Below, piece after piece: positions 22,374 through 45,875 of a stretch of 64,000 bases of DNA (its first letter is position 1; the number at the start of each line of letters is the position of its first letter). This DNA comes from an uncultured Gammaproteobacteria bacterium. Its GTDB lineage: Bacteria; Patescibacteriota; Microgenomatia; UBA8517. Both the position numbers and the translations under genes were made by a program. Below the pieces are notes generated by a model that was not told where the DNA came from, ran no database searches, and saw only the letters and a list, made by a program, of their open reading frames with translations. Where the stretch lies: the NCBI GenBank assembly GCA_964600575.1, contig CAZRJH010000004.1, forward strand, positions 70,711 through 134,710, read 5' to 3'.

Positions 22374-23612
22374 TCAATAGTTTTGTGTATTGTAACCGTC
22401 GACTTTGTAAGTTTTGTCTGATGCAATGTTTTTTTGGTTTGAACTGATTTTCGGGCATTGCACATTCAGACAGACCAAAAAGACTTTATCTGGATTTTGG
22501 ACAATTTCGGAAAAAGACTCGGTGCTAAAGTTATCTATTCGAGTAAATTTCCGGCCTGTATGTTTTTCAATCTGGGCCCATAAACCGGCCTCAATAAGAG
22601 TATTTCTTTTGTTATCTTTTAAAACTAGCATTTGAAAACTCGTTGCTTCTGAATTCAACACTATATTTTCGGAAATATCCCAGATTTTTCCTTGTGAAAT
22701 AAAATTGTAATCAAGAAATGCCCCTTTGCTTATCAATAGAATAAAGATAGGTATTATTAATATTTTTCCCAAGGCTGTTAAATTTGATCTTGTGAGTATT
22801 CCGACTGAAATTGTAATAATTAAAAAATTAAAAGCAGTTAAATATCGTAAAAACCCTCCCGTGTCATTTAGACTACCTGAGTTGAACGCGACGAATTCTG
22901 ACTCCGATTTTAAAAAATCCAACATGACGGGGTAATAACAAATCGTTAATAGTAGAGCGGATGCCAGTAAGCATCGGAGAATAGATTTTTCTTTCTTAAT
23001 AAGCAAAAAAAGAAAATATAGGCCAAGATACAAGTATCCTGCATTGTAGATGATGCCCGCAGTCGTCAAAGACAAAGTAGCGACTATATGAAAGTACTGG
23101 TTGGCTTCCTTTTTTGTACCTAAAAGTAAACCAAAAAATATTAATGGCAAATTTAAGTAGGATCCCCAGTAGGCTGAGGCAATGTCAAGAAAAAATCTGG
23201 ATTCGACTAAGGAAAATATTGAAACAAGACTGCCAAAGTAGCCGAATTTATTTTTTAGAATTAAAAAAAGTAAAAACAGTGAGTAAGACAGTATTAAAAT
23301 GTTAGCAACAAAGAATATTCGAATATCGTCCCAAAGCCTAACTAAATATGAGCACAAATAGAAATAAATTGGGCTCGATAATCTGGTATTGGTAAAATTG
23401 GAAGGCGGGCCTCTGGCAATTTTTTCTTCTGAAAAAGCTAGATGACGACCAACCAAGTAGTCGCGCCAAGTATCTTCGCGGATTGTATCAAAATCGTTTA
23501 TATAAGTTGCAAAAATCGAAGATATTCTTGTAACTATTAATAGAGCCAACAAAATAGGCAAAATCCGGAGCAGGATTTTGATTATTTGTTTCATTCCGTT
23601 TGTACTATCCAC
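22374..23612 (-). CDS. Polytopic membrane protein (≥8 TM) with C-terminal soluble domain; function unknown
   Basis: 412 aa, strongly hydrophobic over residues 1-300. Its 5' end overlaps the 3' end of the giant gene by 22 nt. Confidence 0.6.
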   Translation of the reverse strand: MDSTNGMKQIIKILLRILPILLALLIVTRISSIFATYINDFDTIREDTWRDYLVGRHLAFSEEKIARGPPSNFTNTRLSSPIYFYLCSYLVRLWDDIRIFFVANILILSYSLFLLFLILKNKFGYFGSLVSIFSLVESRFFLDIASAYWGSYLNLPLIFFGLLLGTKKEANQYFHIVATLSLTTAGIIYNAGYLYLGLYFLFLLIKKEKSILRCLLASALLLTICYYPVMLDFLKSESEFVAFNSGSLNDTGGFLRYLTAFNFLIITISVGILTRSNLTALGKILIIPIFILLISKGAFLDYNFISQGKIWDISENIVLNSEATSFQMLVLKDNKRNTLIEAGLWAQIEKHTGRKFTRIDNFSTESFSEIVQNPDKVFLVCLNVQCPKISSNQKNIASDKTYKVDGYNTQNY

Positions 23613-26600: not shown

Positions 26601-29600
26601 GTGTCAGTAGTCTTTGTTGTATTAGCCGTGCCGTCGTAGAGATCAATTGCTGAATCGCTATCAACCCCAATCACTGTAACTCCACCGGTATTTGTGGTTG
26701 CGTCGTTTATACCTACGTAAATTGCACGGTTACTATTGTCCAAGGTTACTGCAGTAACCTTGTTAGATGTGGTTGTACCCCCAGATGCGTTACCCATCAA
26801 TCTTTGATAGTTATCAACTCCTGTCACTCCTGCTATGCGGGAGGCCGTGTGGTTAAGTAGTGCTCTGGAACCTACCTGGTACATTCTTTTTACTTGGCTT
26901 ATCGATAATGCTTCTGCTGTTATAGACATATCGTCCAAATCTCCATTCCAGAAATTTGCACCTGTTGCACAGGCGGCTCCTGTTGAACAATCTGCGCCAA
27001 CTCCCATTATTACTCCAGTGCCTGTTAAAGTTCCCGTTGCGGTTAACGATACATCAGAGGCCGCAAGTTGTCCGTCGATATAAAGTGAAATTGAACTTGT
27101 GCCATTTTTTACAGCTACCAAATGGTGCCAGGTGTTATCCAAATAGGTTGTTGTGGTTGTAGCTTGGTCGTCTGTGGGATCGGCATTGGTCCATGTAGCA
27201 TCATCATCGATGCCAAATGAGATTGTACCTGTAGAGTTCATCCAAACTTTCCAACCTAAAACCGCAGCCGGGGTGGTGTTATAAGTGTGATCGATTATTA
27301 CATCGTCGTTGGGTGCTGCCGGGGGAGCAGAAACTGAATGCTTAAACCAGGTTGATACAGAGAAAGAACCTGTTCCAAAGTCGTAATCGCTGTCTGTGTC
27401 GCAGGTGTTGTCGTTGTTGGCATCGGAACAGAAGAAATCATCGGTGTTATCAAGCGTAACACCTGTTCCGCGGACACCCGAACCGTATGTGAATCCTGTT
27501 CCGTTGGCGTTGTCTGCATCTAAAACATTTCCCTTTACGGAAATATCTGTAGCATTGGCGTTGTCTGCAATTGATCCGCTTCCGTTGAAAGGCCACATTG
27601 CTCTAACATCTCCCGTCATGTCATCGCCTATATAATCCTTTGTGTAGTATTTTGCAGAACCGTTGCTTTCGTCTCCTTTTTTGTCGTTAACAACAGACAA
27701 ACTTCCGGTTGTATCGTTGGTTGCTGATGCAACATAGATGGTGTCTGATTTACCGTCAACTGCGGATGTTCCTGTTGCTACAAAAAGTGCATCCGGAGCA
27801 ACATTTATTATTTGTGCTGAAGAGAATAAATAAGGACCGGCGACAGCAGCTGCACCTGCGATTTTTACCCCCGTTTCGTCCCAGGCAACATCGGGGGTTC
27901 CGTTTAATTCGCTTCCGGAGTCCGTTACAACAGAGTTCCATCTTTCCAGCTGTCTTGATGTACCGTTTAATGCGTACAAGTCTCCGCTGGTGCTAAAGAA
28001 TGTGCTTTGGTACACATCGCTTGTTACATCTGAGTAGCTGTAAACAGTATTAGTTGTTTCGTTAATTACAGAGACCCCAGTGTTATTTGCTACTGCGACA
28101 AATGTTTTGCCGTTGAAAGTGATTGCATGGATGTCTTCTACCGTGCCGTTAGATATGGGGGAGGACGGGCCTGTTGTCCAGGCAACGGTTGAATTTCTGT
28201 TTGCAATGTTTTTGTCGCCAAAGTAATCGTCGGTAGCGTTGTATCTTTGAGCTCTATCGTTTTTGAAATCTATAACATAGAGTCCGCCAGAACCGCCGTT
28301 GTTTCCAAGATAAACTTTACCGTTAAGGGCAAAGATTGAAGAACCAGTGGATCCTGTCGAAGGCCCGATCATTTGTTCGGTTGCTCCCGAGCCCTTGGCA
28401 AACTCCATCCACATTGTGTTGTCTTTGGCATCAAAAATATACAAGCGTGAGCCGGAGACGGTTAATATTGCCTTTTGGGGGAATTCTCGTTTTCCGCATC
28501 GGTCGTCGCTGTCTAAAGTACATGCAGTTCCGATAGCTTGATCTATCGTTTCGTTATACCAAGATGATGTTTTGGCGCGTTCATCGTTTGTCCATATACC
28601 GCCATCTGTATCTTTAGTTGTGTCATAAACATATGTGTTAACTGCGGTTGTTGTAATTGCTTTTTCGTCTTTCTGGCCTGCAATGTTCTCGTCTGAGTTT
28701 GTCCAGGCAAATCCTGTCCTGTTTGCATCACTTGCTAAAGCCAAGAAGTTACCGGATGTGAGAGATGTGCCTGAAACATCAATTATGTTTTGCGTAGTTG
28801 CTCCGCTATTTACATTTACAGTTGTTGCAACTGCGGTATTTCCGACATTTACTGTATCCGCAGAAGTTCCGCCTGTGGCTATATTTATTGTGTCGGCTCC
28901 TGTACCTGTTGCAATGTTTAATGCATTCCCGCCGTTACCAGTGCCAAGATTTATCGCTGTATAAGCGGAGTTACCTGTGCCCAAATTAAGGGCGGTTGTC
29001 GCAGCTCCACCCAAAGACAAAGTTGTTGCATTTGTATTGAATATAGTGGCGGGACCCGATCCTGTTGTGGTTATGTCGCTTCCGTTTACTGCAGCATCAC
29101 CGTTGGCTGTTATGTTTCCCGAAGCGTCAACTACAAACATTGTTGCAAGAGAGTTGGTTGCATAGATAAAGTTACCTGTGAACGAACCTCCGCCTGTATT
29201 GTCAAAATCAAAGAATAAACCGTTTCCTGTAAAGTTTTGTGGACCGGATTCTCCCAACTTGATTATATTACCCGAAGTTATGGCGGAAGCTGTTGCCTCG
29301 AATAGATTGCCTGTTGTTATAACGGTTGAGTTGATCTTTGCTATATCACCGATCGCATTCTCAATCCCGAATACTTGGAATGCGGAATTGGTCGCCGTTC
29401 CGCCGATTGCCAAATCATAAGTTGAGTTGGCAGGGGAGAGAATTTTGTTTTGCAATTGCCACCAACCTTGAGTTCCCGTTGTTGCTGTTGTTGTGATAGC
29501 ACCCGAACATGTAAGGTTGCCGTTGGCGCCGTCCATGGTACAACCTGTATCACCACTACCACCCTCGAATAGTATAGAAGCTGTTCCGCTTCCTGTTGGG

Positions 29601-32600
29601 CCAATGTTGAATGTGGTTGCAGCACCACCAAAGTTAATCGTTGTAGCTGTTGCGTTAAGGAGTGAGAAGCTGGTCTCATCAGTTGATATAGATGCTCCAT
29701 TAACAGCCAAGGAATTATTAACTGTTGTTGTACCTGTGGCTCCTCCAATTCCCAAAGTTGTTGCATTTGTAAATATATTTCCTGTAGTTTGAGATGTTGT
29801 TAAGTCACCTCCGTTAACTGCAACATCTCCGGCACAGGTTAGGTTGCCCGTGGCGTTTGCAATGGTACAACCTGTTGCAGCACTTCCACCTGCTATCTCT
29901 ACATCTCCGGCAGAAATGTTATTCAACTGCAAAGCGGAGGAATTTCCGGAATCGAGTCTTAAAATGCTTCCTGATTGAGAGTTGGATATTGAGTGGACAC
30001 CTGTTCCTGTAAAGGATATGCCGGCGGCATTGCCGGAAAATGTTTGACCGGTTGTACCTGCTGTTGAAATGTTCCCGGTTGAATCAACTGTGTAATAAGT
30101 TGCCCCTGCATTATCAAATCTTAAGAAATTTCCGCTAAAGTTACCTCCGCCTGTATTATCAAGATCTGCAAATATTGCATTACCCGAGAAAGCGTGTCCG
30201 TCTCCGCCACTTCCCAGTTTAACTAAATTACCCGTGGTTATTGCACTTGCTGTTGCCTCGAAAACATTACCTGTTGTTATTGTATTTGAGTTGAGTTTAA
30301 CAACACCGCCGTTTGTATTTTCTATACCAAAAGCTAGGAATTTGGCGGAGGATGTAGAGTTGCCTCCAACTACAACATCGTAGGTTTGGTTGGAAGGATA
30401 AAGTGTCTGATTCAAAAGTGCCCAATGACTTGCACCTGCAGGACAGTTGGCGCCACTGCTATCACAAACTGCAAATCCGTTTTGTGTAAATGCGTCTGCA
30501 TATATATTATCCCAGGGAAGTGAGCCGCTACCCAAATCGTTTGTTCCTGTTGTTCCTATCGGAATCAAATCGCTATCCTGCGCAACTCTGGCTGTAAATG
30601 TAATATTGTCCGTTATCGCGTCTCCAAGAGCAGTGTTACCGTTAACACTCAAGTCTCCGATTCCTGTTACATTTTGTCCGTTTCCTGTAACTGCTCCAAG
30701 AAGTGTAAATGCACCCAATCTTAATGTGCCCGCAGATGCCGTTATGTCATGACTGCCTGCCCCTGTTGCAAATGTTATATCTGAGTCGACTCCCGTGAGT
30801 GTTACACCTGTTGTTCCTGTTGTTGATATATTTCCGTTGGCATCAATTTGGAACGCGTCGCCGGTTCCGCCTGTCAGAGTTCCCGAAACATCCAAGTTTC
30901 CTGTTACATTTGTATTGTCTTGTAATTCAATTGTTCCTCCTGCATTCAAAATTACTTGGTCTGCAGATGTAAGAGTTATATCGTTACCTGCACCATTTGA
31001 TGTTAAGGAAGCTGTTGAGCCTTGTAATGTGATTGTTTGCCCTGTGACACCAACTGTAAGAGCGCCGCCCGGAGTTATGTTTAGCGCACCAGATGATGTA
31101 ATGTCACCGCCGTTTACTGCCAGGTCTCCCGAAGTAACAATGTTACCGGCCGAATTTACTGTCAAAACTGTTGCACCCGCATTATCAAATCTTAAGAAAT
31201 TACCCGTAAACGAACTTCCTCCTGTGTTGTCAAAATCCATGTAGATTCCATTACCTGTGAAGTTTCCGTTATCTCCACCTGTGCCCAATTTAACCAAGTT
31301 ACCCGAGGTTATAGCCGAAGCGGTTGCTTCAAAAACATTGCCTGTTGTTATTACAGTTGAATTTAGTTTGGCAATGTCACCGCCTGCAGTTTCTACACCA
31401 AATACCTGGAAAGCAGATCCTGTTGCAGTTCCTCCGATTGTTAGATCGTAAGTTGAATTGGCAGGGGAGATTATTTTGTTGTTTAACTGCCAGTAAAGCG
31501 AACCTGCAGGACAATTTGTTCCACTACTGTCACAAACTCCAAACCCGTTTTGAGTAAACGCATTTGCATATACATTGTCCCAAGGCAGGGAAGCACTACC
31601 CAAATCATTTGTTCCCGTTGTTGTTATGGGGAGTAAATCAACATCTTGAGCTACTCTTCCGGTGAATGTGATGCTGTCGGTTATCGCGTCTCCAAGAGTA
31701 GTATTACCGTTAACACTCAAGTCTCCGATTCCTGTCACATTTTGTCCGTTTCCTGTAACCGCTCCCAAAAGTGTGAACGCTCCCAGTCTGAGTGTTCCAG
31801 AAGATGCTGTTATGTCATGGTTTGATGTACCTGAGAATGTAAAATCAGCGTCGTTGCCACTTAAGGATATTCCGGTTGTTCCTGTTGAGCTGATATTGCC
31901 TGTTGAATCAACTTGGAATGCATTTGAGCCTCCGCTTGTCAGAGTTCCCGAAACATCCAAGTTCCCTGTGATGTTTGTGTTGTCTACTATTTCTACAGTT
32001 GTCCCTGCATCGAGAATTATTTGGTCGGCTGAAGTTAGCGATATGTCATTTCCTGCGCTGTTGGAAGTTATAGATATTGTCGAACCTTGCAGTGTTGCAG
32101 GTTGGGTTGTAACACCAGCTACCAAAGCTCCCGTTGGGGTAATATTCAAAGCACCTGTTGATGTAATATCGCCACCGTTTACTGCAACATCGCTTGCTAC
32201 TATGTTTCCGCTTGAATCAAAGTGGAAAGTTGTTCCACCCCCAACAGAAAAACCGTTTGAGTTTTGTAAGTATCCCGAAACTCCCGTAAGTGTATTGGAG
32301 TTGGGAAGTGTAAAGGTTCCTGTTGCGGTTAAGTTTGCTCCGTTTGCAGTTAATGCTGCCGACCCCCTGGAATTGATAACAACATTACCTGTAGAAGATC
32401 CTCCCAAGGTTAGGTCAGCCATATTTGTTGTTGCCAAATTTCCATTACCTGTTAAATAGGTTGCAACGTTGGCAACGGAACCTGATACGGATGCTGTTGG
32501 GGTTCCAGAGGCAACATTAATAAAGGCAAACTTTGCGGATGTTGTTGCGTTGGAACCTACTAAAAGGTCAACGGTATTGTTTACATTGTATAAAGCTCCA

Positions 32601-35600
32601 AGAGCTTGAGCCCAGTATCCTGCACCGGCGGGACAATTGTTTCCGCTTGCATCACAGACCGCGTTTCCGTTTTGGAACAAGTTGACTCCGTAAATGTTAT
32701 CCCAGGGGAGTGAACCACTTCCTAAATCATTTGTACCGGTTGTTGTTATGGGCAAAAGATCTGAATCCTGTGCAACTCTTCCTGTGAATGTAATGTTGTC
32801 AGTTATTGCGTTACCGATTGTTGAATCTCCATTAAGTGTAGTATTGCCATCTACACTCAAATCTCCGATACCTGTTACATTCTGATTGTTGCCTGTGATT
32901 GCCCCAATCAATGTAGTTGCACCCAGTCTCAATGTTCCAGAAGATGCTGTTATGTCATGGTTTGATGTACCGGAGAATGTAAAATCAGCGTCATTGCCAC
33001 TTAAGCTAATTCCTGTGGTTCCGGTTGAAGATATATTTCCTGTTGAGTCGATCTGGAATGCATTTGAACCTCCGCTTGTCAGAGTTCCCGAAACATCCAA
33101 GTTTCCTGTGATATTTGTATTGTCCTGAAGCTCAATTGTTGTTCCGGCATCAAATATTATCTGGTCGGCAGAAGTTAAGGTTATGTCGTTTCCGCCACCA
33201 TTTGAGGTAAGTGACAAAGTTGATCCCTGAAGTGTTGATGTTTGTCCTGTCGCTCCCACAACCAATGCACCACCCGGTGTGATATTTAGTGCCCCCGTTG
33301 ATGTAATATCGCCTCCGTTTACTGCAACATCACTTGCTACTATGTTTCCGCTTGAATCAAAGTGGAAAGTAGTTCCGCCGCCAACAGAATAACCGCCAGA
33401 AGTTTGGACATATCCGGAAACACCTGTCAAAGTATTGGAGTTGGGGAGTGTTAATGTTCCGCTTGCAGTTAGGTTGGCTGCGTTTGCAGTTAGCGCGGTT
33501 GACCCTCTTGAATTTATGACTACATTTCCCGTAGTGGCGCCACCCAATGTTAAATCAGCCATGTTTGTTGTGGCCAAGTTTCCGTTGCCTGTTAAGTAAG
33601 TGGCGACATTGGCAACAGACCCTGCTATTGTCGCGGTTGGTATACCTGCCGCAACATTTGTAAAGGCAAACTTTGCAGAGGCTGTTGCATTTCCACCGAT
33701 AAGCAAATCTGTTGAATTGTTTGTCGGATATAAAGCACCAAGGCTTTGATTCCAATAACCCGCTCCTGCAGGACAGTTGGCACCGCTTGCGTCACAGACT
33801 GCGTTGCCATTTTGTACAAACGCATTTGCATATACATTATCCCAAGGTAGGGAGGAACTTCCCAAATCATTTGTTCCCGTTGTCGTTATCGGGATTAAGT
33901 CACTATCCTGGGCAACTCTACCCGTAAATGTAATATTGTCCGTTATTGCGTTTCCGAATATCGAATCTCCGTTTAGGTTTGTGTTTCCTGTAACACCGAG
34001 AGCGTTATTGACGGTTGTTGTTCCGCTCCCTGCACCCAATCCCAAAGTTGTTGCATTCAAAAAGACATTGGCAGTTGTCTGATTTGTTGTTAGATCGCCT
34101 CCGTTAACCGCAACATCTCCTGCGGTTACAACATCACCTGTAGAATTAACTGTGAATAGGGTTGCCCCCGAATTATCAAATCTCAAAAAGTTTCCTGTGA
34201 AGTTACCTCCGCCTGTGTTATCAAGATCTGCAAAGATTGCGTTACCCGAGAAAGCATGTCCGTCTCCACCTGTTCCTAGCTTAACCAAATTACCCGAAGT
34301 GATAGCACTGGCTGTCGCCTCAAAAACATTACCCGTTGTTATTACTGTTGAGTTTAACTTTGCTATATCTCCGCCTGCGTTTTCTATACCAAACACCTGG
34401 AATGCGGAACCGGTTGCATTTCCTCCAACTGTCAAATCATAAGTTGAATTGGCAGGGGAGAGAATTTTGTTGGCAAGTTGCCACCAACCTTGGGTTCCGC
34501 TGGTTGCGGTAGAGGTTATGTTTCCACTACAAGTAAAGTTGCCTGTAGTTCCGTCGAGTGTACAACCTGTGTCTCCTGATCCGCCTGAAATAGCAACGCT
34601 TCCTGATGCTCCCGTGGGCCCAACATTCAAAGTTGTTGCGGCACTTGCAAAGTTAATTGTTGTAGCCGTTGAATTAACTAGATTAAAAGTTGTTTGATTT
34701 GTGGTTAAAGTTCCGCCGTTAACCGAAAGGGAGTTGTTAACTGTAGTTGTTCCGCTTCCTGCACCCAATCCCAAAGTTGTTGCATTTGTGAATAGGTTTG
34801 CAGTAGTTTGAGTGGTTGTTAGGTCACCTCCGTTAACTGCAACATCTCCGGCACAGGTTAAGTTACCAGTAGCGTTTGCGATTGTACAACCTGTTGCTGC
34901 ACTTCCGCCTGCGATTTCCACATCACCTGTAGAGGAGTTGTTAAGTTGCAAATTAGCAGAGTTTCCTGAATCAATTGTTAGAGCACTTGTTGAGTTTGAG
35001 TTGCTTATCGAGTGGGTGCCTGTGCCGCTGAATGTTAAGTCTGCACCTGCTCCGCTTTCTGTTATTCCTGTTGTTCCTTGGACTGTAAGGTTTCCCGCAA
35101 CAACAGTTGATGCATTGTTGATAGTTGTTGTCCCGCTTGCGTTCCCGATAGAAATTGTTGTTGCCGCACCTCCGACATTTAGAGTGGTTGCATTGGAGTT
35201 AAACAGATTCCCTGTAGATGCTGTGGTTGTTAGGTTGCCGCTATTGGCTGCAACATCTCCAGCTGCCACTACATTGCCGGATGCATCAACTGTAAATCTT
35301 GTAGTTGTTGCATTATCAAATCTTAAGAAATTACCCGTAAACGAACTTCCTCCTGTGTTGTCAAAATCCATGTAGATTCCATTACCTGTGAAGTTTCCGT
35401 TATCTCCGCCTGTTCCAAGTTTTACCAAGTTGCCTGAAGTTATGGCTGAGGCAGTTGCCTCAAAAACATTACCCGTTGTTATTACTGTTGAGTTTAACTT
35501 TGCTATGTCTCCGCCCGCGTTTTCTATTCCAAACACCTGGAAAGCAGAACCTGTTGCAGTCCCACCGATTGCTAAATCGTAAGAAGAAATCGAAGGGGAA

Positions 35601-38600
35601 ATTATTTTGTTATTTAACTGCCAATATGTTGCATTAACAGGGCAGTTAGCCCCGCTACTATCACAGACATTAAACCCATTTTGTACAAACGCATTTGCAT
35701 ATACATTATCCCAAGGTAGGGAGGAACTTCCCAAATCATTTGTTCCTGTTGTTGTTATCGGGATCAAGTCACTATCCTGGGCAACTCTGGCTGTAAAAGT
35801 TATAGCGTCTGTTATTGCATTACCAAGTGTTGTATCTGCGTTAACCTGGAGCGAATTTGCAACTGTTGTTGTTCCTGTTGCTGCCCCCAAAGATACTGTT
35901 GTTGCTGCACCTCCTATATTCAAAGTTGTGGCGTTGGAATTAAATAGTGTTGCAGTTCCTGTTGAAGTTGTTGTTAAGTCGGCCCCGTTTACCGCAACAT
36001 CACCTGCAAATGTGCCCGCGTTTGCATTTATGTTTCCGCTCCCGTCAAAGTAATATGTAGTGCCTCCACCCACAGAATATCCTGCAGATGATTGTAGGTA
36101 GTTGGCAACACCTGTAAGTGTTATGGAGTTGGGGAGATTGATTACTCCTGTTGTTGTAACATCGCCGTTTGAGCCAACAGTAAACCTGGTGCTACCGGCA
36201 TTGTCAAACTTTACAAAGTTACCCGTAAAGCTTCCTCCGCCTGTATTGTCAAAATCTGCATAAATTCCATTGCCTGTGAAGTTTTGATTTCCGCCTTCAC
36301 CAAGTTTTACTAAATTACCCGAGGTTATTGCACTTGCTGTTGCACTCAAAACATTGCCTGTTGTGATTTCGCTAGAAGTTAAACTGGCCACACTTCCGGA
36401 CGGTGTTTCTAATGCAAATGCCTGGAATTTTGCCGATGAGGTAGCGGTTCCTCCTACTGCCAGATCGTGGGTAATGTTGGCAGGGGAGAGAACTTTGTTT
36501 TGTAATTGCCAATAGTTCACTGATGAGCTTGCAGGACATCCTGTTCCTGTTATGTCACATACAGCATTTCCATTCTGGTAAAGATTTGTTCCATAAATAT
36601 TGGCCCATTGCAGGGAAGCGCTGCCCAAGTCGTAATTGTTGTTGGTTATCGGCAGCACGTTTGTATTAACTCTTCCGTTGAACGAGACTCCGTCGGTGGT
36701 TGCATCACCCAGAGTTGTATCACCTTTAATAAGAAGTGAATTATTTAGTGTTGTGGTGCCGCTTGTTGCACCAATATTTATCGTAGTTGCAGCACCCGCA
36801 AAGTTAAGTGTGGTTGTGGTTGCATTCAAGAGTGCAAAAGATGTTTCATCTGTTGTTATCGAAGCGCCGTTAACAGCCAAAGCATTGTTGACGGTTGTTG
36901 TTCCGCTCCCTGCACCCAACCCCAAAGTTGTTGCATTTGTGAATAGGTTTGCAGTAGTTTGAGTGGTTGTTAGGTCACCTCCGTTAACTGCAACATCTCC
37001 TGCGGCTATTACATTGCCAGAAGCGTCAACGCTGAACTGAGTTGCCCCCGCATTATCAAACTTTACAAAGTTACCTGTAAAGCTTCCTCCACCAGTGTTA
37101 TCAAAATCTGCATAAATTCCATTACCTGTGAAATTTTGATTTCCACCTTCTCCAAGTTTTATTAAATTACCCGAGGTTATAGCAGAAGCAGTTGCTTCAA
37201 AAACATTTCCCGAGGTTATAACGCTCGAAGTAATCTTGGCTAAATCTCCGGTTGCTTTTTCTACTCCAAATACTTGGAATGCCGAGCCTGTTGCGCTGCC
37301 TCCTATTGTCAAATCATAAGTTGTATTAGCAGGGGATAGAACTTTGTTTTGTAATTGCCACCAGCCTTGTGTACCCGAGGTTGCTAGCGAAACTATACTG
37401 CCGGAACAAGTAAAATTACCGTTACTGCCGTCTAATGTACAACCCGTGTCTCCCGATCCTCCCGAAAGTGTAACAACTCCTGCAGCACCGTTCGGCCCTA
37501 TGTTAAGTGTATTGGCTGCCCCCGCAAAATTAATTGTGGTTGCGTTTGTGTTAAAAAGTGTTGCGCTTGAAGCCGAAGTTGTTAAGTCGCCTCCGTTAAC
37601 TGCAACATCTCCGTTAAAAGTGCCGATATTTGCATTTAGATCACCGCTTGATGAAAAGTTGAATGTGTCGCTTCCGCCTACGGAAACTCCTTGGGAAAGT
37701 CTAAGAAAATTACTTACTCCTGTTACTGTGTTGGTGTTGGGAAAAGTGAGTGTACCCACAGTTGAAAGGTTTGCACCGTTTGCGGTGAGGGCTGCAAGTC
37801 CTCTTGAATTTATTGCTACATTACCTGCAGTTGAGCCGCCAAGGATAAGATCTGCCGCATTTGTGGTTGTTAAGTTTCCGTTACCGGTTAAGTAAGTTGC
37901 AACATTAGCAACCGAACCGGATATTGATGCCGTTGGAGTTCCGCCGTTTACTCCTGTAAATGCAAATTTGGCAGAGTCAGTTGCGTTTGATCCGATTAAT
38001 ACATCCACGGAATTGTTTTTGGGGAAGAGTGCGCCGTTACTTTGGGTCCAGAAAATAGAAGCAGCAGCTGCTGCTGAAGGGTCAACCCAACTTAATGTTC
38101 CGCTGCCGTCTGTTTGTAAAATATATCCAGAACTTTGTGATCCGGGCCAGGTGTATGGGATTCCGCCAAAAGTTGTCGTTCCACTTACCACTAAATTGTT
38201 ATTAACGGTTGTCGATCCTGTACCGGCACCTAGGCTTATTGTTGTTGCGCCGCCGCCGACGTTTAATGAAGTTACGCCGCTATTTACCAAGTTAAATGTT
38301 CCGCTTGTGGAAGTTATGTCACCACCATTAACCGCCAGATCACCGGCAGTTGTTGTATTACCGTTTGCAACATTAACGCTGAAGTTTGCACCACCTACGG
38401 TAAGATTTGCACCTGTTACATCGACCCCGTTTGTAGCATCTACATTTCCTGCGATAGTAACTTGGCCTGTTGAATTCAAACTTACGGCCCCTGTTCCGCT
38501 TGTGGAGAGGGTTAATCCTCCTGTTGCGATATCTGTATTTGCGTCGAGTGTCATATTGTCTTTGAACTGGGCAAAATCAAATGAGTCGTTGGCAACCGAA

Positions 38601-40564
38601 ACATTACCCGAGCTAACTGTAAAGAAGTTGGGATCAAAAGATGCTACACCGACAGTTGATGTGGTAGCATTTGCACCCGTTACTGTAAGAGTGCTGCCTG
38701 ATTGAGATGTTGTGATACCGTTTGAACCAACTATCGTTTGAGTTCCGCCGAGTGCAATTGCAGAGCTTCCCGAATCTCCTGCAAATGTGATCGAGTTATT
38801 TGCAAGTTCTGTGTTAGATACACAACCTGTACAAGTTATTTCGGAAGCAGTGATAGTTCCTGTTCCCGAGAAGGTAAGGGAAGAGCCTGTTCCTACAACC
38901 ATGGCAGCTGTAGTATTTGTTCCACTTGTTAAATCAGCAAAAGATCCGGAAAAAGAACTTGTCCCTGTTGCAACTAAAACCCAAGTTGTTCCGTCCCAGT
39001 AATAAATTTTATCGTCGGTTGAGTTGTAAACAATCGATCCTTCTCCTATGGCCGAAGGATTGCTTGTGAATCTTCCGATTTGTACTTGGCCGTTAAATAT
39101 GGCGTTACCCGTATTTACCTTAAGTGCGGCGGCATCGTTCCAGCCGTCGTATCTATTAAGTACCAAAGTAGAATAGCTGGAGTTTGCGGTTGTCGGTTTT
39201 CCTCGTTCATCCAAAGTTAAAGTGAGTAGATCGTTAAGTGCTCCTCCCGTTGCCGGCTTTTTGATTATAGAAGCGTAATCTCCGGCACCTTGGTTAATTG
39301 TAAAATTACCCGAGGTTTGTGAATAACCTGTGATGTTTTCTAGCGCACCTCCGGAAGTCAGTCTTTGTGTACCTCCTGTTGATATATCGTTTTTAACGAA
39401 TAAGTCGTCACCGATTGTTATGTCACCAGCGCTAAACGTGTTGCCTACAGCATCTATTGTGAATTTAGATGTCATTTTTGGTGCACCTGATTGCAAATTA
39501 ACTAAGTAATAACCAGTTGAGTTATTTGGCACCATTCCGTAGTAGAGTGATCCACTTGTAAGATTTGGTCCTTGAACGTTTAACAAATTACCCTTGTTAG
39601 CTTCAAACAAAAAATGAACATAACCTTTGCCGTCCGGGTTAACTTCTATTATGCCGTCGCTACCCTCGGCGGTTTTTAGTGTGAGTGCCTGGCCTTCCAT
39701 TAAGAAGTTACCGTTTTTGGCTTTTATAGCAGGGGATTGCCCGGCCAGCAATAAAGTTCCGTTCTCGTCTAATATGGGAACTGTTAAAGGCCCTGCACCT
39801 GTATAAGGATCTGCTGCAAGGTATCCGTTAAGATTCGTAGAAGTATTAGCTGTGTTAACAGGAATTCTCATTACTCCCGAGGCAGACCCGATAGAAGGCT
39901 CCAGGAATAGCTGATCGTTTTGGAAGAAGAGATCTGTTGGAACTTGGTCTAATGATATCAAAGCAGAACCATTTGCATCAGTTTTGACTTCTTTAGCGGG
40001 GGAAGAGTAGAGAACTTCGCCGCCTGCAGATTTGTTAAAGAGTTTAAAAGATAAAGTTTCGCTACCAACTCTAGGGCTCCCATTGCTGTCTGTTAATGTC
40101 AGCTTGGCAAAAAGATTCCAGTAAGAATTTACCGCAATCTGTGCGGGGATTGCACTTGGGCTAGCCGTCTTTGTGGGGGCTGCAGGATTGTCTGTTCTTG
40201 TTTGTAAATTGGCAACAGGAGAAGTCTCTGCTGCAGGTGTAATTGTGAACGGAATTGCAAATTGTAATTTCCAAGTTAGGAGGAATAAAACAACGATTAA
40301 GGCTCCCGTTAGAGTTAAGGTTAAAAATATTTTAGGGTTCTTTTTCTTGACCGGGGTAACAACTGTGTAGGGATTGGAATTTTCTACAACAGGCCTTGGT
40401 TGGCTTAAAGGATTTTTGTCCAAATGACCTTGTCCTTCGGCCCAGTCAAAAAATCTGTTCAATGAAATTTGTTTTCTTTTGAGAGTTGCAGGGGAGGATG
40501 TTGTAGCAATCTGTTCTTGGTATGCCTTAACTAATTCGGGTGATACGTTGGATAATTTTGCCAT
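23591..40564 (-). CDS. Giant (5657 aa) membrane-anchored surface protein
   Basis: A 16974-nt ORF with no stops. Cytoplasmic N-terminus (aa 1-55) has an integrase-SAM-like motif (ATLKRKQISLNRFFDWAEGQGHL). TM near aa 79-98 (IFLTLTLTGALIVVLFLLTW). Then 5500+ aa of Thr/Gly/Asn/Ser-rich repeats, for example DVAVNGGDLTTTQTTANLF...GSGTTTVNN repeated more than 10 times and NAITDNITFTGRVAQDSDLIPITTTGTNDLGSSSLPWDNVY six times. Also Cys-pair motifs GCT...TC, a LamG-like segment, a β-propeller-like segment, and a C-terminal domain shared with the 50397..63632 product. Confidence 0.85.
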   Translation of the reverse strand: MAKLSNVSPELVKAYQEQIATTSSPATLKRKQISLNRFFDWAEGQGHLDKNPLSQPRPVVENSNPYTVVTPVKKKNPKIFLTLTLTGALIVVLFLLTWKLQFAIPFTITPAAETSPVANLQTRTDNPAAPTKTASPSAIPAQIAVNSYWNLFAKLTLTDSNGSPRVGSETLSFKLFNKSAGGEVLYSSPAKEVKTDANGSALISLDQVPTDLFFQNDQLFLEPSIGSASGVMRIPVNTANTSTNLNGYLAADPYTGAGPLTVPILDENGTLLLAGQSPAIKAKNGNFLMEGQALTLKTAEGSDGIIEVNPDGKGYVHFLFEANKGNLLNVQGPNLTSGSLYYGMVPNNSTGYYLVNLQSGAPKMTSKFTIDAVGNTFSAGDITIGDDLFVKNDISTGGTQRLTSGGALENITGYSQTSGNFTINQGAGDYASIIKKPATGGALNDLLTLTLDERGKPTTANSSYSTLVLNRYDGWNDAAALKVNTGNAIFNGQVQIGRFTSNPSAIGEGSIVYNSTDDKIYYWDGTTWVLVATGTSSFSGSFADLTSGTNTTAAMVVGTGSSLTFSGTGTITASEITCTGCVSNTELANNSITFAGDSGSSAIALGGTQTIVGSNGITTSQSGSTLTVTGANATTSTVGVASFDPNFFTVSSGNVSVANDSFDFAQFKDNMTLDANTDIATGGLTLSTSGTGAVSLNSTGQVTIAGNVDATNGVDVTGANLTVGGANFSVNVANGNTTTAGDLAVNGGDITSTSGTFNLVNSGVTSLNVGGGATTISLGAGTGSTTVNNNLVVSGTTTFGGIPYTWPGSQSSGYILQTDGSGTLSWVDPSAAAAASIFWTQSNGALFPKNNSVDVLIGSNATDSAKFAFTGVNGGTPTASISGSVANVATYLTGNGNLTTTNAADLILGGSTAGNVAINSRGLAALTANGANLSTVGTLTFPNTNTVTGVSNFLRLSQGVSVGGSDTFNFSSSGDLNANIGTFNGDVAVNGGDLTTSASSATLFNTNATTINFAGAANTLNIGPNGAAGVVTLSGGSGDTGCTLDGSNGNFTCSGSIVSLATSGTQGWWQLQNKVLSPANTTYDLTIGGSATGSAFQVFGVEKATGDLAKITSSVITSGNVFEATASAITSGNLIKLGEGGNQNFTGNGIYADFDNTGGGSFTGNFVKFDNAGATQFSVDASGNVIAAGDVAVNGGDLTTTQTTANLFTNATTLGLGAGSGTTTVNNALAVNGASITTDETSFALLNATTTTLNFAGAATTINIGATSGTTTLNNSLLIKGDTTLGDATTDGVSFNGRVNTNVLPITNNNYDLGSASLQWANIYGTNLYQNGNAVCDITGTGCPASSSVNYWQLQNKVLSPANITHDLAVGGTATSSAKFQAFALETPSGSVASLTSSEITTGNVLSATASAITSGNLVKLGEGGNQNFTGNGIYADFDNTGGGSFTGNFVKFDNAGSTRFTVGSNGDVTTTGVINLPNSITLTGVANYLQSSAGYSVGGGTTYYFDGSGNINANAGTFAGDVAVNGADLTTTSTGTATLFNSNATTLNIGGAATTVSLGAATGTTTVANSLQVNADTTLGNAITDAITFTARVAQDSDLIPITTTGTNDLGSSSLPWDNVYANAFVQNGFNVCDSSGANCPVNATYWQLNNKIISPSISSYDLAIGGTATGSAFQVFGIENAGGDIAKLNSTVITTGNVFEATASAITSGNLVKLGTGGDNGNFTGNGIYMDFDNTGGSSFTGNFLRFDNATTTRFTVDASGNVVAAGDVAANSGNLTTTASTGNLFNSNATTLNVGGAATTISIGNASGTTTINNASTVVAGNLTVQGTTGITESGAGADLTFSGTGTHSISNSNSTSALTIDSGNSANLQLNNSSTGDVEIAGGSAATGCTIANATGNLTCAGDVAVNGGDLTTTQTTANLFTNATTLGLGAGSGTTTVNNSLSVNGGTLTTNQTTFNLVNSTATTINFASAATTLNVGPTGASGSVAISGGSGDTGCTLDGTTGNFTCSGNITSTATSGTQGWWQLANKILSPANSTYDLTVGGNATGSAFQVFGIENAGGDIAKLNSTVITTGNVFEATASAITSGNLVKLGTGGDGHAFSGNAIFADLDNTGGGNFTGNFLRFDNSGATLFTVNSTGDVVTAGDVAVNGGDLTTNQTTANVFLNATTLGLGAGSGTTTVNNALGVTGNTNLNGDSIFGNAITDNITFTGRVAQDSDLIPITTTGTNDLGSSSLPWDNVYANAFVQNGNAVCDASGANCPAGAGYWNQSLGALYPTNNSTDLLIGGNATASAKFAFTNVAAGIPTATIAGSVANVATYLTGNGNLATTNMADLTLGGATTGNVVINSRGSTALTANAANLTASGTLTLPNSNTLTGVSGYVQTSGGYSVGGGTTFHFDSSGNIVASDVAVNGGDITSTGALNITPGGALVVGATGQTSTLQGSTLSLTSNGGGNDITLTSADQIIFDAGTTIELQDNTNITGNLDVSGTLTSGGSNAFQIDSTGNISSTGTTGISLSGNDADFTFSGTSNHDITASSGTLRLGATTLIGAITGNNQNVTGIGDLSVDGNTTLNGDSTIGNAITDNITFTGRVAQDSDLLPITTTGTNDLGSGSLPWDNIYGVNLFQNGNAVCDASGNNCPAGAGYWAQALGALYNVNNTVDLLVGSNATTSAKFAFINVASGTPTASVSGSVANVATYLTGNGNLATTNMADLTLGGSSTGNVVINSRGSAALTANGANLTATGTFTLPNSNTLTGVSGYLQNSNGFSVGGGTTFHFDSSGNIVASDVAVNGGDITSTGALNITPTGALVAGVTTQPATLQGSTISITSNSAGNDISLTSADQIILDAGTTVEIVDNTNITGNLDVSGTLTSGGSNAFQVDSTGNISSTGTTGISLSGNDADFTFSGTSNHDITASSGTLRLGAFTLLGAVTGNGQNVTGIGDLSVNGNTTLGDAITDSITFTGRVAQDVDLLPITTTGTNDLGSASLPWDNVYANAFTQNGFGVCDSSGTNCPAGSLYWQLNNKIISPANSTYDLTIGGTATGSAFQVFGVETAGGDIAKLNSTVITTGNVFEATASAITSGNLVKLGTGGDNGNFTGNGIYMDFDNTGGSSFTGNFLRFDNAGATVLTVNSAGNIVTSGDLAVNGGDITSSGALNITPGGALTVGVTGQTITLQGSTASLTSNGAGNDITLTSADQVILNAGGTIELQDNTNVTGNLDVSGTLTGGTGDAFQIDANGNISTTGTTGVTLTGVDSDITFATGAGSHDITASAGTLRLGAFTLLGAVTGNGQNVTGIGDLSVNGNTALGDAITDNITFTARVAQDSDLIPIGTTGTNDLGSGSLPWDNIYADAFTQNGFAVCDSSGANCPAGASHWALLNQTLYPSNQTYDVVVGGNSTSSAKFLAFGIENTNGGVVKLNSNTITTGNVFEATASAITTGNLVKLGSGGDGHAFSGNAIFADLDNTGGGNFSGNFLRFDNAGATYYTVDSTGNISTAGTTGQTFSGNAAGISFTGTGVHSISNSQSGSILRLDSGNSSALQLNNISAGDVEIAGGSAATGCTIANATGNLTCAGDVAVNGGDLTTSQTTGNIFTNATTLGIGGATGTTTVNNSLAVNGASISTDETSFSLLNATATTINFGGAATTFNIGPTGSGTASILFEGGSGDTGCTMDGANGNLTCSGAITTTATTGTQGWWQLQNKILSPANSTYDLAIGGTATNSAFQVFGIENAIGDIAKINSTVITTGNLFEATASAITSGNIIKLGESGPQNFTGNGLFFDFDNTGGGSFTGNFIYATNSLATMFVVDASGNITANGDAAVNGSDITTTGSGPATIFNTNATTLSLGGAATTALNLGTGNSAYTAINLGTGNGGNALNIATGTGADTINIATGGTSADTVNVGNTAVATTVNVNSGATTQNIIDVSGTSLTSGNFLALASDANRTGFAWTNSDENIAGQKDEKAITTTAVNTYVYDTTKDTDGGIWTNDERAKTSSWYNETIDQAIGTACTLDSDDRCGKREFPQKAILTVSGSRLYIFDAKDNTMWMEFAKGSGATEQMIGPSTGSTGSSIFALNGKVYLGNNGGSGGLYVIDFKNDRAQRYNATDDYFGDKNIANRNSTVAWTTGPSSPISNGTVEDIHAITFNGKTFVAVANNTGVSVINETTNTVYSYSDVTSDVYQSTFFSTSGDLYALNGTSRQLERWNSVVTDSGSELNGTPDVAWDETGVKIAGAAAVAGPYLFSSAQIINVAPDALFVATGTSAVDGKSDTIYVASATNDTTGSLSVVNDKKGDESNGSAKYYTKDYIGDDMTGDVRAMWPFNGSGSIADNANATDISVKGNVLDADNANGTGFTYGSGVRGTGVTLDNTDDFFCSDANNDNTCDTDSDYDFGTGSFSVSTWFKHSVSAPPAAPNDDVIIDHTYNTTPAAVLGWKVWMNSTGTISFGIDDDATWTNADPTDDQATTTTTYLDNTWHHLVAVKNGTSSISLYIDGQLAASDVSLTATGTLTGTGVIMGVGADCSTGAACATGANFWNGDLDDMSITAEALSISQVKRMYQVGSRALLNHTASRIAGVTGVDNYQRLMGNASGGTTTSNKVTAVTLDNSNRAIYVGINDATTNTGGVTVIGVDSDSAIDLYDGTANTTKTTDTNTQYSSNDVSSISISGSACIAYNSGSDECGTKATLSITGENGSAVTQNWMETSNSSLYSTLATLTSPTAVKNAMTVNNVFQVYNTYNNTTNSTTGETIQTPAMSVDSNGNFTYNYFGPSTTANAMTYTDSANLTTGDFMNIVASNALTTGNVIDINSAIYTETTAATGSLVNLALSNTSSNTSGNSIVNGINITGTLNTTGATGTKEFNMFNVAAPTLTGCSGGTCQVSGFKVNPTSAGSGITEYGVNIANLSGAGAGTETAFIIGSGWDTDLQFVDTTPLVTIGDGGTLTLNDGTNTLAQLYDAGTAGVLGVTKNLLVGSVTGLTTRTFSRFATSDITSDHALASAGDVLINEDLEVDGILYLDGKNISNTNGTASILLCTGQSGAACATTSALENTLSAGSWIIDNQANVGEPALAVNNAKGGDLIVASASGVLKFRVANNGDVTLGDNSGTDLTVGGGTGKIDVGTVDPPYTINGKKYATYMGGLVGVKEEVTGSLATSEYIPGIGYRTSIDFNAQPEGSDLWLFGKTTNINENIDKLVALLTPNFPTKVWYQVDSENRRLNIYSALPAQISYRLTGPRFDAENWLNTRESEAVGFIINSADVVTNFAENLQVTALTDFVTEKVADGAQIATYVVKDASGQVVAGIEAVGNFVAANIKTGALQAQEIATDSLKATQIAAENALISMKLVAPDFKTKLISPLAEETDITIQLGSATESGELAITNIEGTEVASISSTGDATFSGELYARNIHSDNLDQIRDILTQVQADQVLLSESQSWNTQTATSSASFGQIAVSDLYVTNQAAVNSLSVTQTITIGNDLVIAASGIDTLSEPLKIQDLALAPVEIMGGLVNIDTNGNVSIAGNLDVAGTVSTSTLAIKDTTGNSVSTIDASGSATFNSVNVSQIIVAGAQDATSSAVVNGEISTNSTVGKGVLPGGTTDITIRNPKVNDYTFVYITPTSNTLNNVLYVKEKSNGYFKVGFTSPIQEDTNFNWWIVQTE
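30400..36750 (-). repeat. In-frame tandem super-repeat (~1.1 kb units, at least 6 copies) inside the minus-strand giant gene
   Basis: The module DAITDNITFT(G/A)RVAQDSDL(I/L)PITTTGTNDLGS.SLPWDN(V/I)Y...NG..VCD.SG.NCP recurs at about 30.45-30.64, 31.56-31.70, 32.64-32.83, 33.79-33.96, 35.64-35.82 and 36.52-36.70 kb. Between copies, WQLQNK(I/V)LSPAN.TYDL..GG.ATGSAFQVFG(I/V)E and FEATASAITSGNLVKLG...FTGNGIY.DFDNTGG..FTGNF recur. Confidence 0.8.
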
Positions 40565-40570
40565 AGGTGA

Positions 40571-41098
40571 TTAGTGATTAATTTCGAAGTTTCCTTTGTT
40601 TTCATCGAGCCAGCTTAAAAACTGTCTTACATCTGAGACATAGTTTTTGAGAGTGCTTGAGCTTACCTTTTCAGCCTCCAAAAACACTTTAAAGTCGTCG
40701 ACTATATCAAAAGACATCTTTGGAGCTGGGCGGTTCTGTGCAATGTTTTCTATCCCGGTTGTGAAATCAGAATTTACGATTTGGGTTGCAACCATAAACC
40801 TGCTTAAGTGTCTAAGTGTCGAGAGTCTTCTATTCACCGACCCTATTGGCTGGCTGTTTTCGATCATGTAGTTTTTGTACTCCGTGGCAATGTTTTTGTT
40901 GAGAAAGGGAACTGCTTCTGTAAGTGTTTCGACATACGACCCGTAAGACCTAAGACGGAGGATTAACCAACCCAGAAAATGAGACAAATCGCTTCTGTAG
41001 TTTTTGTGCGATTTTGGAGTAACGCCCAAAGTATCAAGATATTTAGAAAACTCTTTGCGGATGATATCGTTATCGATTTTGGGCATTTTTGTAATCAA
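40571..41098 (-). CDS. Stand-alone protein with two tandem phage-integrase N-terminal SAM-like domains and no catalytic domain
   Basis: 175 aa. Repeat 1: PKSHKNYRSDLSHFLGWL. Repeat 2: SSSTLKNYVSDVRQFLSWLDENKG. Compare the XerC/XerD N-terminus (NTLxAYRRDLxxFxxWL). No R..HxxR..Y tyrosine-recombinase catalytic region follows. Confidence 0.72.
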   Translation of the reverse strand: MITKMPKIDNDIIRKEFSKYLDTLGVTPKSHKNYRSDLSHFLGWLILRLRSYGSYVETLTEAVPFLNKNIATEYKNYMIENSQPIGSVNRRLSTLRHLSRFMVATQIVNSDFTTGIENIAQNRPAPKMSFDIVDDFKVFLEAEKVSSSTLKNYVSDVRQFLSWLDENKGNFEINH

Positions 41099-41599
41099 AG
41101 CTAAATTAGACGAATTAGACTGATTAGACTATTATTAAAAAGCTGGAGGAGCCTGTCAAGAGGCTATTAGCAACATAAAATATTCATTACTTTACGATTA
41201 TTTTCACAGTGTATGTAGTATAATTACCGCATTCAATACACGCACAATTTTTGTTAAATGATATATTTAAGAATACCCGTATAACAGCAAAATATACCTA
41301 AAAAATGATACAAATCTAGGCACGAAGCTTGTTTTGCGGAAAACGGCGGTAATTATTTACTTTCAAAAATACTTGCGGAAATGGAACCTAAAAAGAGGAG
41401 TGTAACCGGTTTTTAACACACAATTCCTTAATAAATTACAGGATATACACTTAAGTTCAATTAATCTCAATAAAAGAGATAATTAGCACTCGAGTTTTAT
41501 TTTTGCTAATAAAAAATAGTGTCGTTTCGTTCCAATCTTTTGGGAATTATTTTAAAAATGAAGCTATTTATATTTGAGCTTGAAATTTTTTATTAAAGG

Positions 41600-41627
41600 T
41601 TGCTTTTTTTGCGTGTAATATTACAAT
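41600..41627 (+). promoter_or_regulatory. Candidate sigma70-like promoter for leuS (-35 TTGCTT 41600-41605, 16-bp spacer, -10 TACAAT 41622-41627), implying a near-leaderless transcript
   Basis: Hexamers read from the sequence. No Shine-Dalgarno between them and the ATG at 41635. Weak. Confidence 0.2.
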
Positions 41628-41634
41628 TTCAACT

Positions 41635-45200: not shown

Positions 45201-45235
45201 TTGCAAATTAAACTTCAAGGGAATTAAATAAATGA

Positions 45236-45865: not shown

Positions 45866-45875
45866 ACATAACTCT

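Follow-up and report, generated by a model that had tools for sequence, protein, structure and literature searches.

Why does the N-terminal part of a tyrosine recombinase occur, with no catalytic domain, at the cytoplasmic end of a giant surface protein and in the small gene directly upstream of it? The question is raised by a 64,000-nucleotide (nt) stretch of contig CAZRJH010000004.1 (assembly GCA_964600575.1) from an uncultured bacterium of the Patescibacteriota (Microgenomatia; UBA8517), referred to here as the window. A sequence-only reading of this DNA had proposed integrase-type SAM-like domains, also known as core-binding (CB) domains, on a giant open reading frame (ORF) and on its small neighbour; both ORFs were found where it placed them, and the peptide motifs that it quoted are present. 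The two ORFs and the junction between them are as follows.

40571..41086, (-) strand: small ORF, 171 aa from the ATG at 41086, with the stop codon TAA at 40571-40573.
23591..40564, (-) strand: giant ORF, 5657 aa, consisting of a cytoplasmic tail, a single transmembrane (TM) helix, and a very large repetitive ectodomain.
40565..40573, (-) strand: junction, made up of TAA and TCA CCT (Ser, Pro), followed in the same frame by the ATG of the giant ORF.

Translation of 40200-41140(-) shows that the small and giant ORFs share a frame, with only the TAA and two codons between them. The longest-ORF version of the small ORF, 40571..41098(-), has 175 aa and starts at TTG 41098, however the start at MP... 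is favoured by the homologue alignment. The 171-aa protein is 100% identical to a database protein (P0001) and is present in both the NCBI and the Logan assemblies.

The answer reached here is that the small and giant ORFs encode one ancestral cytoplasmic module of two tandem CB four-helix domains, followed by a signal-anchor TM helix. The gene boundary cuts CB domain 2 inside the loop between helices B and C, and the two ORFs jointly carry exactly two domains. The parts of the module are listed below, with the AlphaFold2 (AF2) predicted local distance difference test (pLDDT) scores where these define a part.

40787..41065, (-) strand: CB (SAM-like) domain 1, complete, matched by TIGR02224/02225 positions 2-106 and with pLDDT above 90.
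40709..40786, (-) strand: flexible linker, aa 101-126, with pLDDT of ~57-73, no secondary structure, and a length that varies in the alignment.
40601..40708, (-) strand: first half of CB domain 2, helices A2 (aa 127-138) and B2 (aa 143-162).
40409..40564, (-) strand: second half of CB domain 2, giant aa 1-52, helices C2-D2, SPELVKAYQ...ATLKRKQISLNRFFDWA...GHLDKNP.
40271..40330, (-) strand: single TM helix, giant aa 79-98 (IFLTLTLTGALIVVLFLLTW), with a Kyte-Doolittle maximum of 2.54 at aa 79.

The small ORF matches the Pfam family PF02899 (Phage_int_SAM_1) with 41.8 bits against a gathering score of 22.3 (E 1.3e-10), and additionally matches PF13495 and PF13102. The NCBIfam XerC/XerD models are matched over their N-terminal ~105 positions only, with ~41 bits against cut-offs of ~330. 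Invariant motifs of domain 1 in the homologue alignment are HKNYRSD in helix B and NRRLSTLRH in helix D. Likewise, helices A2-B2 hold invariant residues of the core and the surface, K147, N148, Y149, S151, D152, F156, and W159, which include a KNY.SD motif.

The small ORF had been read as carrying the domain twice and the N-terminus of the giant protein as a SAM-like domain of its own. However, the second PF02899 match in the small ORF (aa 134-168) reaches only from profile position 2 to 37 of 83, and by itself the giant's N-terminus matches none of the Pfam SAM-like families. Its one weak match is to positions 39-101 of the XerD model (E 0.03), which is the second half of the domain. When the stop codon is bridged, PF02899 is matched on residues 134-222 over profile positions 2-81 of 83 (47.6 bits, E 2e-12) and PF13495 over positions 3-80 of 85. 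Half-profile matches on each ORF, together with an end-to-end match across the stop, identify one divided domain 2. There are therefore not two separate modules, one fused and one stand-alone, as had been supposed, but one tandem module with its boundary inside domain 2. One copy of the module is present in the window.

The placement of the module on the cytoplasmic side, directly before the single TM helix of the giant, is upheld. The sequence KKKNPK lies directly N-terminal of the TM helix and, by the positive-inside rule, orients the N-terminus to the cytoplasm, and there is only one strong hydrophobic segment in the giant protein. A Pfam scan of the whole 5657-aa giant returned nothing, leaving ~5,550 residues after the TM helix with no family.

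An unsplit natural homologue (P0006) was modelled in place of the read-through sequence of the window. Domain 1 has helices at aa 8-19, 24-47, 55-61, 64-76, and 81-100, both in the window's small protein and in the AF2 model of P0006, where pLDDT is above 90. Domain 2 of P0006 has helices at 127-138, 143-163, 174-187, and 190-209 (pLDDT 76-96), followed by a TM helix at 237-271 and then by β-rich domains. Foldseek comparison of P0006 with the PDB matched XerD (1a0p; root-mean-square deviation, rmsd, 1.9 Å over 91 columns) and 3nrw (template-modelling score 0.74, rmsd 1.7 Å), with further matches to IntI (2a3v), lambda Int (5j0n), and stand-alone integrase N-domains, each with a probability of 1.00. 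The best matches listed also include SpyCatcher and immunoglobulin-like matches to the β-rich ectodomain. A profile search of PDB sequences gave no match at E ≤ 0.01. For the small protein of the window alone, AF2 predicts domain 1, the disordered linker at aa 101-126, and an isolated two-helix hairpin (helices 127-138 and 143-162, pLDDT 87-92). This C-terminal hairpin is half of a four-helix bundle.

The catalytic domain PF00589 is absent from the small ORF, from the first 254 aa of the giant, from the whole giant, and from the read-through product. Likewise, no remnant of a catalytic domain is present in the six frames of the 536-nt upstream intergenic DNA. Since there is no catalytic domain, the CB module is not an integrase, nor is it any other recombinase, although the public annotation of these proteins is 'site-specific integrase' or 'recombinase XerD'. 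The sequence-only reading, in which the domains are of the integrase N-terminal SAM-like type without a catalytic domain, is supported (PF02899 above cut-off, PF00589 unmatched). The checks that it proposed gave a significant SAM-like match and no frameshifted catalytic domain nearby, and the domains are not the product of ordinary integrase decay. The locus shows no association with recombination sites or mobile elements. The genes for ArgRS, ComEC, ComEA, and LeuRS flank the locus in every relative examined, with stable, chromosomal synteny, and the DNA element at the locus consists of direct repeats at the promoter, not of inverted core sites. A domesticated remnant of a phage gene, which had been offered as another origin, is not supported as a recent event, given the conserved chromosomal synteny and a family that extends over >150 clusters at 50% identity.

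Two further candidates were rejected. A split intein or trans-splicing pair is not indicated, as Pfam finds nothing but SAM-like families at the junction, and joining the two sequences yields a contiguous CB domain without insertion. An altered genetic code is not indicated either, the ORFs of 5657 and 4411 codons in the window being free of all three stop codons. No OmpR/PhoB-type winged-helix domain was found, Pfam giving only SAM-like families here and MerR in a paralogue of the giant.

The protein search identified 278 relatives, nearly all of 160-181 aa and with 55-80% identity, in Woesebacteria, Microgenomates, and other Patescibacteria. This length is kept in >100 homologue clusters at 55-80% identity. 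An exhaustive profile search gave 83 clusters (50% identity level) at E ≤ 1e-30. Among the top 150 cluster representatives (50% identity), ~110 are of 140-217 aa and ~25 are longer, up to 2652 aa. In P0006 (432 aa) and P0009 (241 aa), which are longer, domain 2 runs unbroken into the TM helix, and the unsplit homologues (P0006, P0009, and the protein of locus L028) have full-length PF02899-type matches, with E from 1e-13 to 4e-21. At the P0006 locus (L004, 6001-9700) the 432-aa ORF is followed by several short ORFs on the same strand and by the gene of a Y1 transposase; fragmentation or decay may have affected the giant gene of this genome.

Genomic loci were fetched for 80 homologues, and 56 had an analysable junction, with the module split in 32 and fused (CB-CB-TM-giant) in 24. 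In all 32 split loci the split is in the B-C loop of domain 2, the upstream ORF ending after helix B. The downstream giants begin M..LP.ISPE.VK.YQ.E....S.AT.KRK..SL.RFFDWA...GHI..NP (helices C-D), followed by the TM helix. The frame of the giant ORF relative to the small ORF is 0, +1, or +2, depending on the genome, and the spacing ranges from an 8-nt overlap to ~184 nt. The small ORFs end in TAA, TAG, or TGA, one locus having two consecutive stop codons, and at the conserved M..LP.ISPE position each downstream ORF starts with an ATG of its own. The variable frame, spacing, and stop codons exclude conserved read-through or frameshifting, and these are therefore two separately initiated genes.

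Both halves of domain 2 are under strong purifying selection. Over the first 300 aa of the giant, conservation is highest in aa 1-52 (0.64), with 0.30 in the linker and 0.38-0.48 in the ectodomain. In an approximate, midpoint-rooted neighbour-joining tree of the module, the fused forms (a Collierbacteria-type group and a second group) make up one large clade and the split forms another, with the fused L028 nested among the split loci. This requires a minimum of two state changes on the tree, and the fission is therefore ancient, with occasional re-fusion. Since split and fused forms both exist, there is also evidence, by the Rosetta-stone argument, that the two proteins interact. The giant's N-terminus was left out of the alignment, as MAFFT had matched it, through the internal repeat, to the latter half of domain 1. 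A search with the C-terminal domain common to the giants returned short fragments only and so provided no census of their N-terminal domains.

The DNA upstream of the small ORF contains a promoter and a repeat array.

41154..41159, (-) strand: -35 hexamer TTGACA, from the promoter scan, invariant in 23 aligned homologous loci.
41131..41136, (-) strand: -10 hexamer (T)AATAAT, from the promoter scan, with TAATAAT in most of the 23 aligned loci.
41105..41129, (-) strand: three direct repeats GTCTAAT-CA-GTCTAAT-TC-GTCTAAT with a 9-nt period, candidate operator.

The promoter of the operon is sigma-70-like (TTGACA-17-AATAAT, 11/12 positions matched) and lies 5′ of the small ORF. Just downstream of its -10 box, and 18 nt 5′ of the ATG, is the 25-nt repeat array, each unit of which is itself -10-like. 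The array is unique in the window, where 0.03 would be expected. The order TTGACA, TAATAAT, AGTCTAAT, nAGTATAAT, nnGTATAAT, yTAGCC is conserved in the 23 aligned loci, the proteins of which are only 32-80% identical. In an exact-pattern scan of metagenomes, all of the matches (14 out of 14) were 6-17 nt 5′ of a homologous small ORF with a giant half-domain behind it. Tandem units are also present 5′ of the fused-clade genes, at -72 to -198, and the repeats are therefore common to split and fused clades whose proteins share only 24-33% identity. A count over both strands of 54 loci (567,615 nt) gave 44 tandem-repeat sites, all at the start region of a module gene, representing ~1,745-fold enrichment; 42 are ≤250 nt 5′ of the module gene, two are at its start, and none are elsewhere.

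In fused Collierbacteria-type loci (L043, ~5824-5961; L045, L050, L054, L056, and L057 similar) there is a mini-ORF between the GTCTAAT pair and the CB-giant ORF. Read by eye, it has a ~46-aa product whose C-terminus is a hydrophobic helix (...AEILTAGIIFVLPVIFLLVLATN*), and the mini-ORF stops right at the ATG of the giant.

Promoter and terminator scans detected neither a promoter nor a terminator between the small and giant ORFs. On this sequence evidence, a single conserved promoter drives transcription of both genes together, and their coupling is tight. No Shine-Dalgarno (SD) motif was found at the junction in the window before the ATG of the giant, and in 33 out of 35 homologous junctions an SD-like motif is missing at -5 to -15, the junctions being A/TAAT-rich. 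These features suggest that the giant ORF is initiated independently of an SD motif or through coupled termination and reinitiation. Consensus folding revealed no conserved RNA structure in the leader, and there is no Rfam match in window positions 40300-41700, which include the junction. The C-terminal tail of the small protein (window 40574-40600) is of low complexity, variable, and rich in N, Q, T, S, and K. The DNA encoding it is A-rich, with CTAAAT/TAATCAC-type repeats immediately 5′ of the ATG of the giant in the window and in homologous junctions. It may be the nucleotide sequence of this tail that is selected, for initiation of the giant ORF, and not the encoded peptide.

A second giant ORF in the window carries a different N-terminal domain.

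50397..63632, (+) strand: second giant ORF, 4411 aa, with a helix-turn-helix (HTH) at ~50403-50549 and a TM helix at ~50631-50687.
50343-50360 and 50367-50384, (+) strand: inverted repeat, TTACAAAGTTGGACATTT / AAATGTCCAAGTTTTTAA, with 18-nt arms that are 89% complementary and a 6-nt spacer.

The C-terminal ~320 aa of the second giant are 40% identical to those of the first (E 6e-56), with internal segments of up to 76%. Its N-terminus is a cytoplasmic MerR-type HTH (PF00376, E 1.2e-13), and one TM helix follows at ~aa 79-97. A syntenic MerR-headed giant of 3816 aa is present in the closest relative (L099). A homologue search with the MerR and TM head gave no match, and conservation is known by synteny in the closest relative only. 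The paralogous giants have unrelated DNA-binding folds (CB and MerR) in the same place, which argues that nucleic-acid binding, or at least a property common to both folds, is selected. The inverted repeat, which is also conserved in L099, lies 13-54 nt 5′ of the ATG of the MerR-headed giant; it might serve as an operator to which the giant's own MerR domain binds, or might form a 5′ hairpin. Both giant ORFs (24000-40000 and 52000-63600) have a G+C content of 0.44-0.455, compared with 0.35-0.39 in the nearby housekeeping genes of the flanks, which probably reflects the Gly/Thr/Ser/Ala/Asn-rich composition of their repeats.

What might such a divided module do? An adaptor or signalling role, as first suggested, is possible; the cis-element points more specifically to DNA binding at the promoter of the operon itself. 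Given the architecture described above, it is rather probable that the complementing halves rebuild a membrane-tethered DNA-binding module resembling the non-catalytic regulator FliZ, and that this module, whose binding we infer, probably autoregulates the operon. The first step would be the docking of the A2-B2 hairpin on helices C2-D2 of the giant's tail, which is likely and would rebuild the four-helix bundle. Residues 125-171 of the small protein are acidic (pI 4.55), and the giant's half of domain 2 and tail are basic (pI 9.3-9.9), a complementarity of charge that is counted for docking. Docking would put the soluble protein at the membrane beneath the giant. As a second step, with somewhat less than even confidence, the module may bind double-stranded DNA through helices B and D, as do FliZ and the CB domains of recombinases, which make their contact in the DNA major groove. 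Its target would be the repeats at its own promoter and the outcome autoregulation. In the fused relatives, the same module would be a membrane-tethered DNA-binding domain.

More tentatively, because the DNA-contact helices B2 and D2 are on different polypeptides, promoter occupancy might depend on the amount or state of the giant protein and provide a feedback or an assembly or contact checkpoint, although this is doubtful. Similarly speculative is a proteolysis-free circuit from surface to gene, in which the tail would capture the soluble FliZ-like half and occupancy of the repeats would report the amount, mechanical state, or host-contact state of the giant. Functionally, such a circuit would parallel anti-sigma/sigma sequestration or Notch, but with a domesticated recombinase DNA-binding domain as its material, and paralogous giants would employ other DNA-binding heads, such as MerR, to the same end.

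Several observations weigh against this overall reading. Approximately 10 of the 54 loci have no detectable repeat pair within 250 nt, the repeat period of 9 nt is not helical, the units are AU-rich, and there are three repeats for two CB domains. Alternatively, the repeats might be a stack of -10 elements or a leader for SD-independent translation; an SD motif is missing at both start codons, and the giant's ATG too has TAAT-rich sequence 5′ of it. The Foldseek E-values are weak (0.02-0.2), which is due to the multi-domain nature of the P0006 query. For the MerR paralogue, confirmation extends to this genome and its closest relative only. In addition, the HTH of RodZ-type proteins binds protein and not DNA, and a DNA-binding fold is therefore no proof of DNA binding.

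RodZ, the HTH of which binds MreB, is the precedent for the alternative that survives best, which is nonetheless improbable. In it, the module is an adaptor that does not bind nucleic acid, the CB or MerR head, as a small, basic, quickly folding cytoplasmic domain, fixing the N-in topology of the giant and/or linking it to a cytoplasmic partner, for instance the cytoskeleton or the machinery of secretion or division, and the repeats are promoter or translation signals unrelated to the module. The presence of two unrelated small basic domains at the same position in paralogous giants would fit this, as would the pI of 9.9 of the tail and the TAAT/A-rich sequence 5′ of both SD-less start codons, which is consistent with an SD-independent translation leader. 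However, a generic anchor does not need a separate soluble partner of 171 aa, nor does it need near-invariant residues on the helices by which recombinases and FliZ contact DNA (HKNYRSD, NRRLSTLRH, KNY.SD, KRK..SL). Repeats that are exclusive to the operon across clades with 24-33% identity fit a cognate protein-DNA pair and not a general translation leader.

It is very unlikely that binding is at the RNA level, with the membrane-tethered module recognizing the leader repeats of the 17-kb mRNA and localizing translation of the giant to the membrane, which corresponds to the co-translational targeting raised in the sequence-only reading. With a transcription start after the TAATAAT box, the repeats would be within the 5′ untranslated region; the leader, being unstructured, is accessible, and the element is operon-specific. 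Yet in the fused clade the repeats are ~190 nt upstream, with the mini-ORF between them and the giant ORF. CB domains bind double-stranded DNA (PMC3367168), and the literature searched holds no precedent for binding of single-stranded RNA by a CB domain.

Less likely still is programmed read-through, in which partial suppression of the in-frame TAA would generate a fused CB-CB-TM-giant and the 171-aa protein would be the termination product. The window and eight other loci are in frame 0 with 1-3 codons from stop to ATG, and the fused homologues demonstrate that the product would be functional. Against this, the other split loci are in frame +1 or +2, overlap by up to 8 nt, or have ORFs 93-184 nt apart. 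All three stop codons are used, the downstream ORF has its own ATG, the junction shows neither an RNA structure nor an Rfam element, and the genetic code is standard.

A decayed integrase, pseudogene, or assembly error, in which the catalytic domain was lost or a recent nonsense mutation or sequencing error introduced the stop, can be set aside as barely credible: the public integrase/XerD labels and the single in-frame stop codon would suggest it, but the same protein is present in two independent assemblies, the split is found in 32 loci and >100 clusters under purifying selection, no catalytic remnant is nearby, the TM helix directly follows domain 2 in all forms, and the housekeeping synteny is kept.

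The neighbouring genes include a DNA-uptake cluster, and each relative checked (L001, L004, and L099-L101) also has this cluster beside its CB-giant operon. In the window, ComEA-like (SLBB/HHH_3), ComEC (Competence), and Lactamase_B-type genes are located between leuS and argS (44286-47863 (+); 41635-44229, 48451-50115). Between the small ORF and leuS lies a spacer of 536 nt (~540), which is unusually long for these compact genomes and of similar, conserved length in relatives (464-579 nt). From 41180 to 41634 (read towards leuS, at 41635) it contains a conserved TTTCAC...TAGTATAATT.CCGCA block, with complementary TTTGCGG/TGCGG blocks downstream. The spacer may act as a leader of leuS or encode a small RNA; it has no Rfam match, and its consensus fold is weak (-8.6 kcal/mol; single-sequence z -0.9).

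Based on these results, hundreds of Patescibacteria proteins labelled 'site-specific integrase' or 'XerD' are misannotated, being the soluble halves of giant surface-protein modules, and counting them as integrases inflates estimates of mobile elements in genomes from the candidate phyla radiation (CPR). The giant surface proteins of CPR bacteria are presumed to mediate host attachment in episymbionts and have been almost devoid of annotation. The module, its partner, and the 25-nt element now defined provide a first handle on how such proteins might be regulated or linked to the cell interior. The locus also provides a natural, anciently conserved case of a small helical domain encoded over two genes, which is useful for understanding and designing fragment complementation. 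The literature searched contains no prior description of CB domains on giant or Patescibacteria (CPR) surface proteins.

Among known systems, the CB domains of the tyrosine recombinases (XerC/XerD, lambda Int, Cre, and IntI) are alike in hidden Markov model matches and in the predicted four-helix fold. The (K)NYRSD of helix B resembles AYRRDL of XerD, and helix D is basic here (RRLSTLR, KRK..SL). Unlike the recombinases, this module has no catalytic domain, has CB domains in tandem that are followed by a TM helix and giant ectodomain, and has its domain 2 distributed over two genes. Its DNA element is a set of promoter direct repeats, whereas recombinases have inverted core sites that flank the crossover region. 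In engineered split-Cre, a cut after aa 59 is permissive for fragment reassembly (PMC5633763). This cut is in the helix B-C loop of the N-terminal domain, the same topological site as the natural fission. Split-Cre is however artificial, usually needs added dimerization domains, and keeps its catalytic domain, whereas the split here is natural, ancient, and non-catalytic.

Membrane-tethered one-component regulators such as ToxR, CadC, and TcpP, and HTH-TM proteins such as RodZ, share the topology of an N-terminal cytoplasmic DNA-binding-type domain, a single TM helix, and an extracytoplasmic domain. The giants of the window have this topology, and the fused homologues have the same order of parts. 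The fold differs, being an OmpR-type winged helix or Xre in ToxR, CadC, and RodZ and CB or MerR here, and the extracytoplasmic part is 4,300-5,600 aa here, compared with the small sensor of the ToxR/CadC type. Part of the DNA-binding module is also a separate soluble polypeptide, unlike in the ToxR/CadC type.

FliZ of E. coli and Salmonella is a CB-like regulator without a catalytic domain that binds extended -10-like DNA through the equivalent of helix B, and its sites include one just downstream of the flhDC promoter (PMC3367168). The likeness to the present locus lies in the non-catalytic CB domain and in -10-like repeats that sit just downstream of the -10 box of the operon. The module is outside the FliZ family (TIGR03823, 14 bits, E 0.028, cut-off 159.3). 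FliZ is a soluble, single-domain, global repressor, whereas the module here is tandem, split, membrane-associated through the giant, and apparently dedicated to one operon. If the binding is true, the FliZ precedent is extended, and on at least two occasions recombinase CB domains have been co-opted as DNA-binding modules without catalysis. What is unusual at this locus is a natural, conserved gene split within a domain, together with a dedicated repeat element, while the components themselves are familiar in kind (a CB domain that has been domesticated and a DNA-binding protein tethered to the membrane). By analogy, the module would work most like a FliZ that has been set in a ToxR/CadC-like membrane topology, as a member of neither family.

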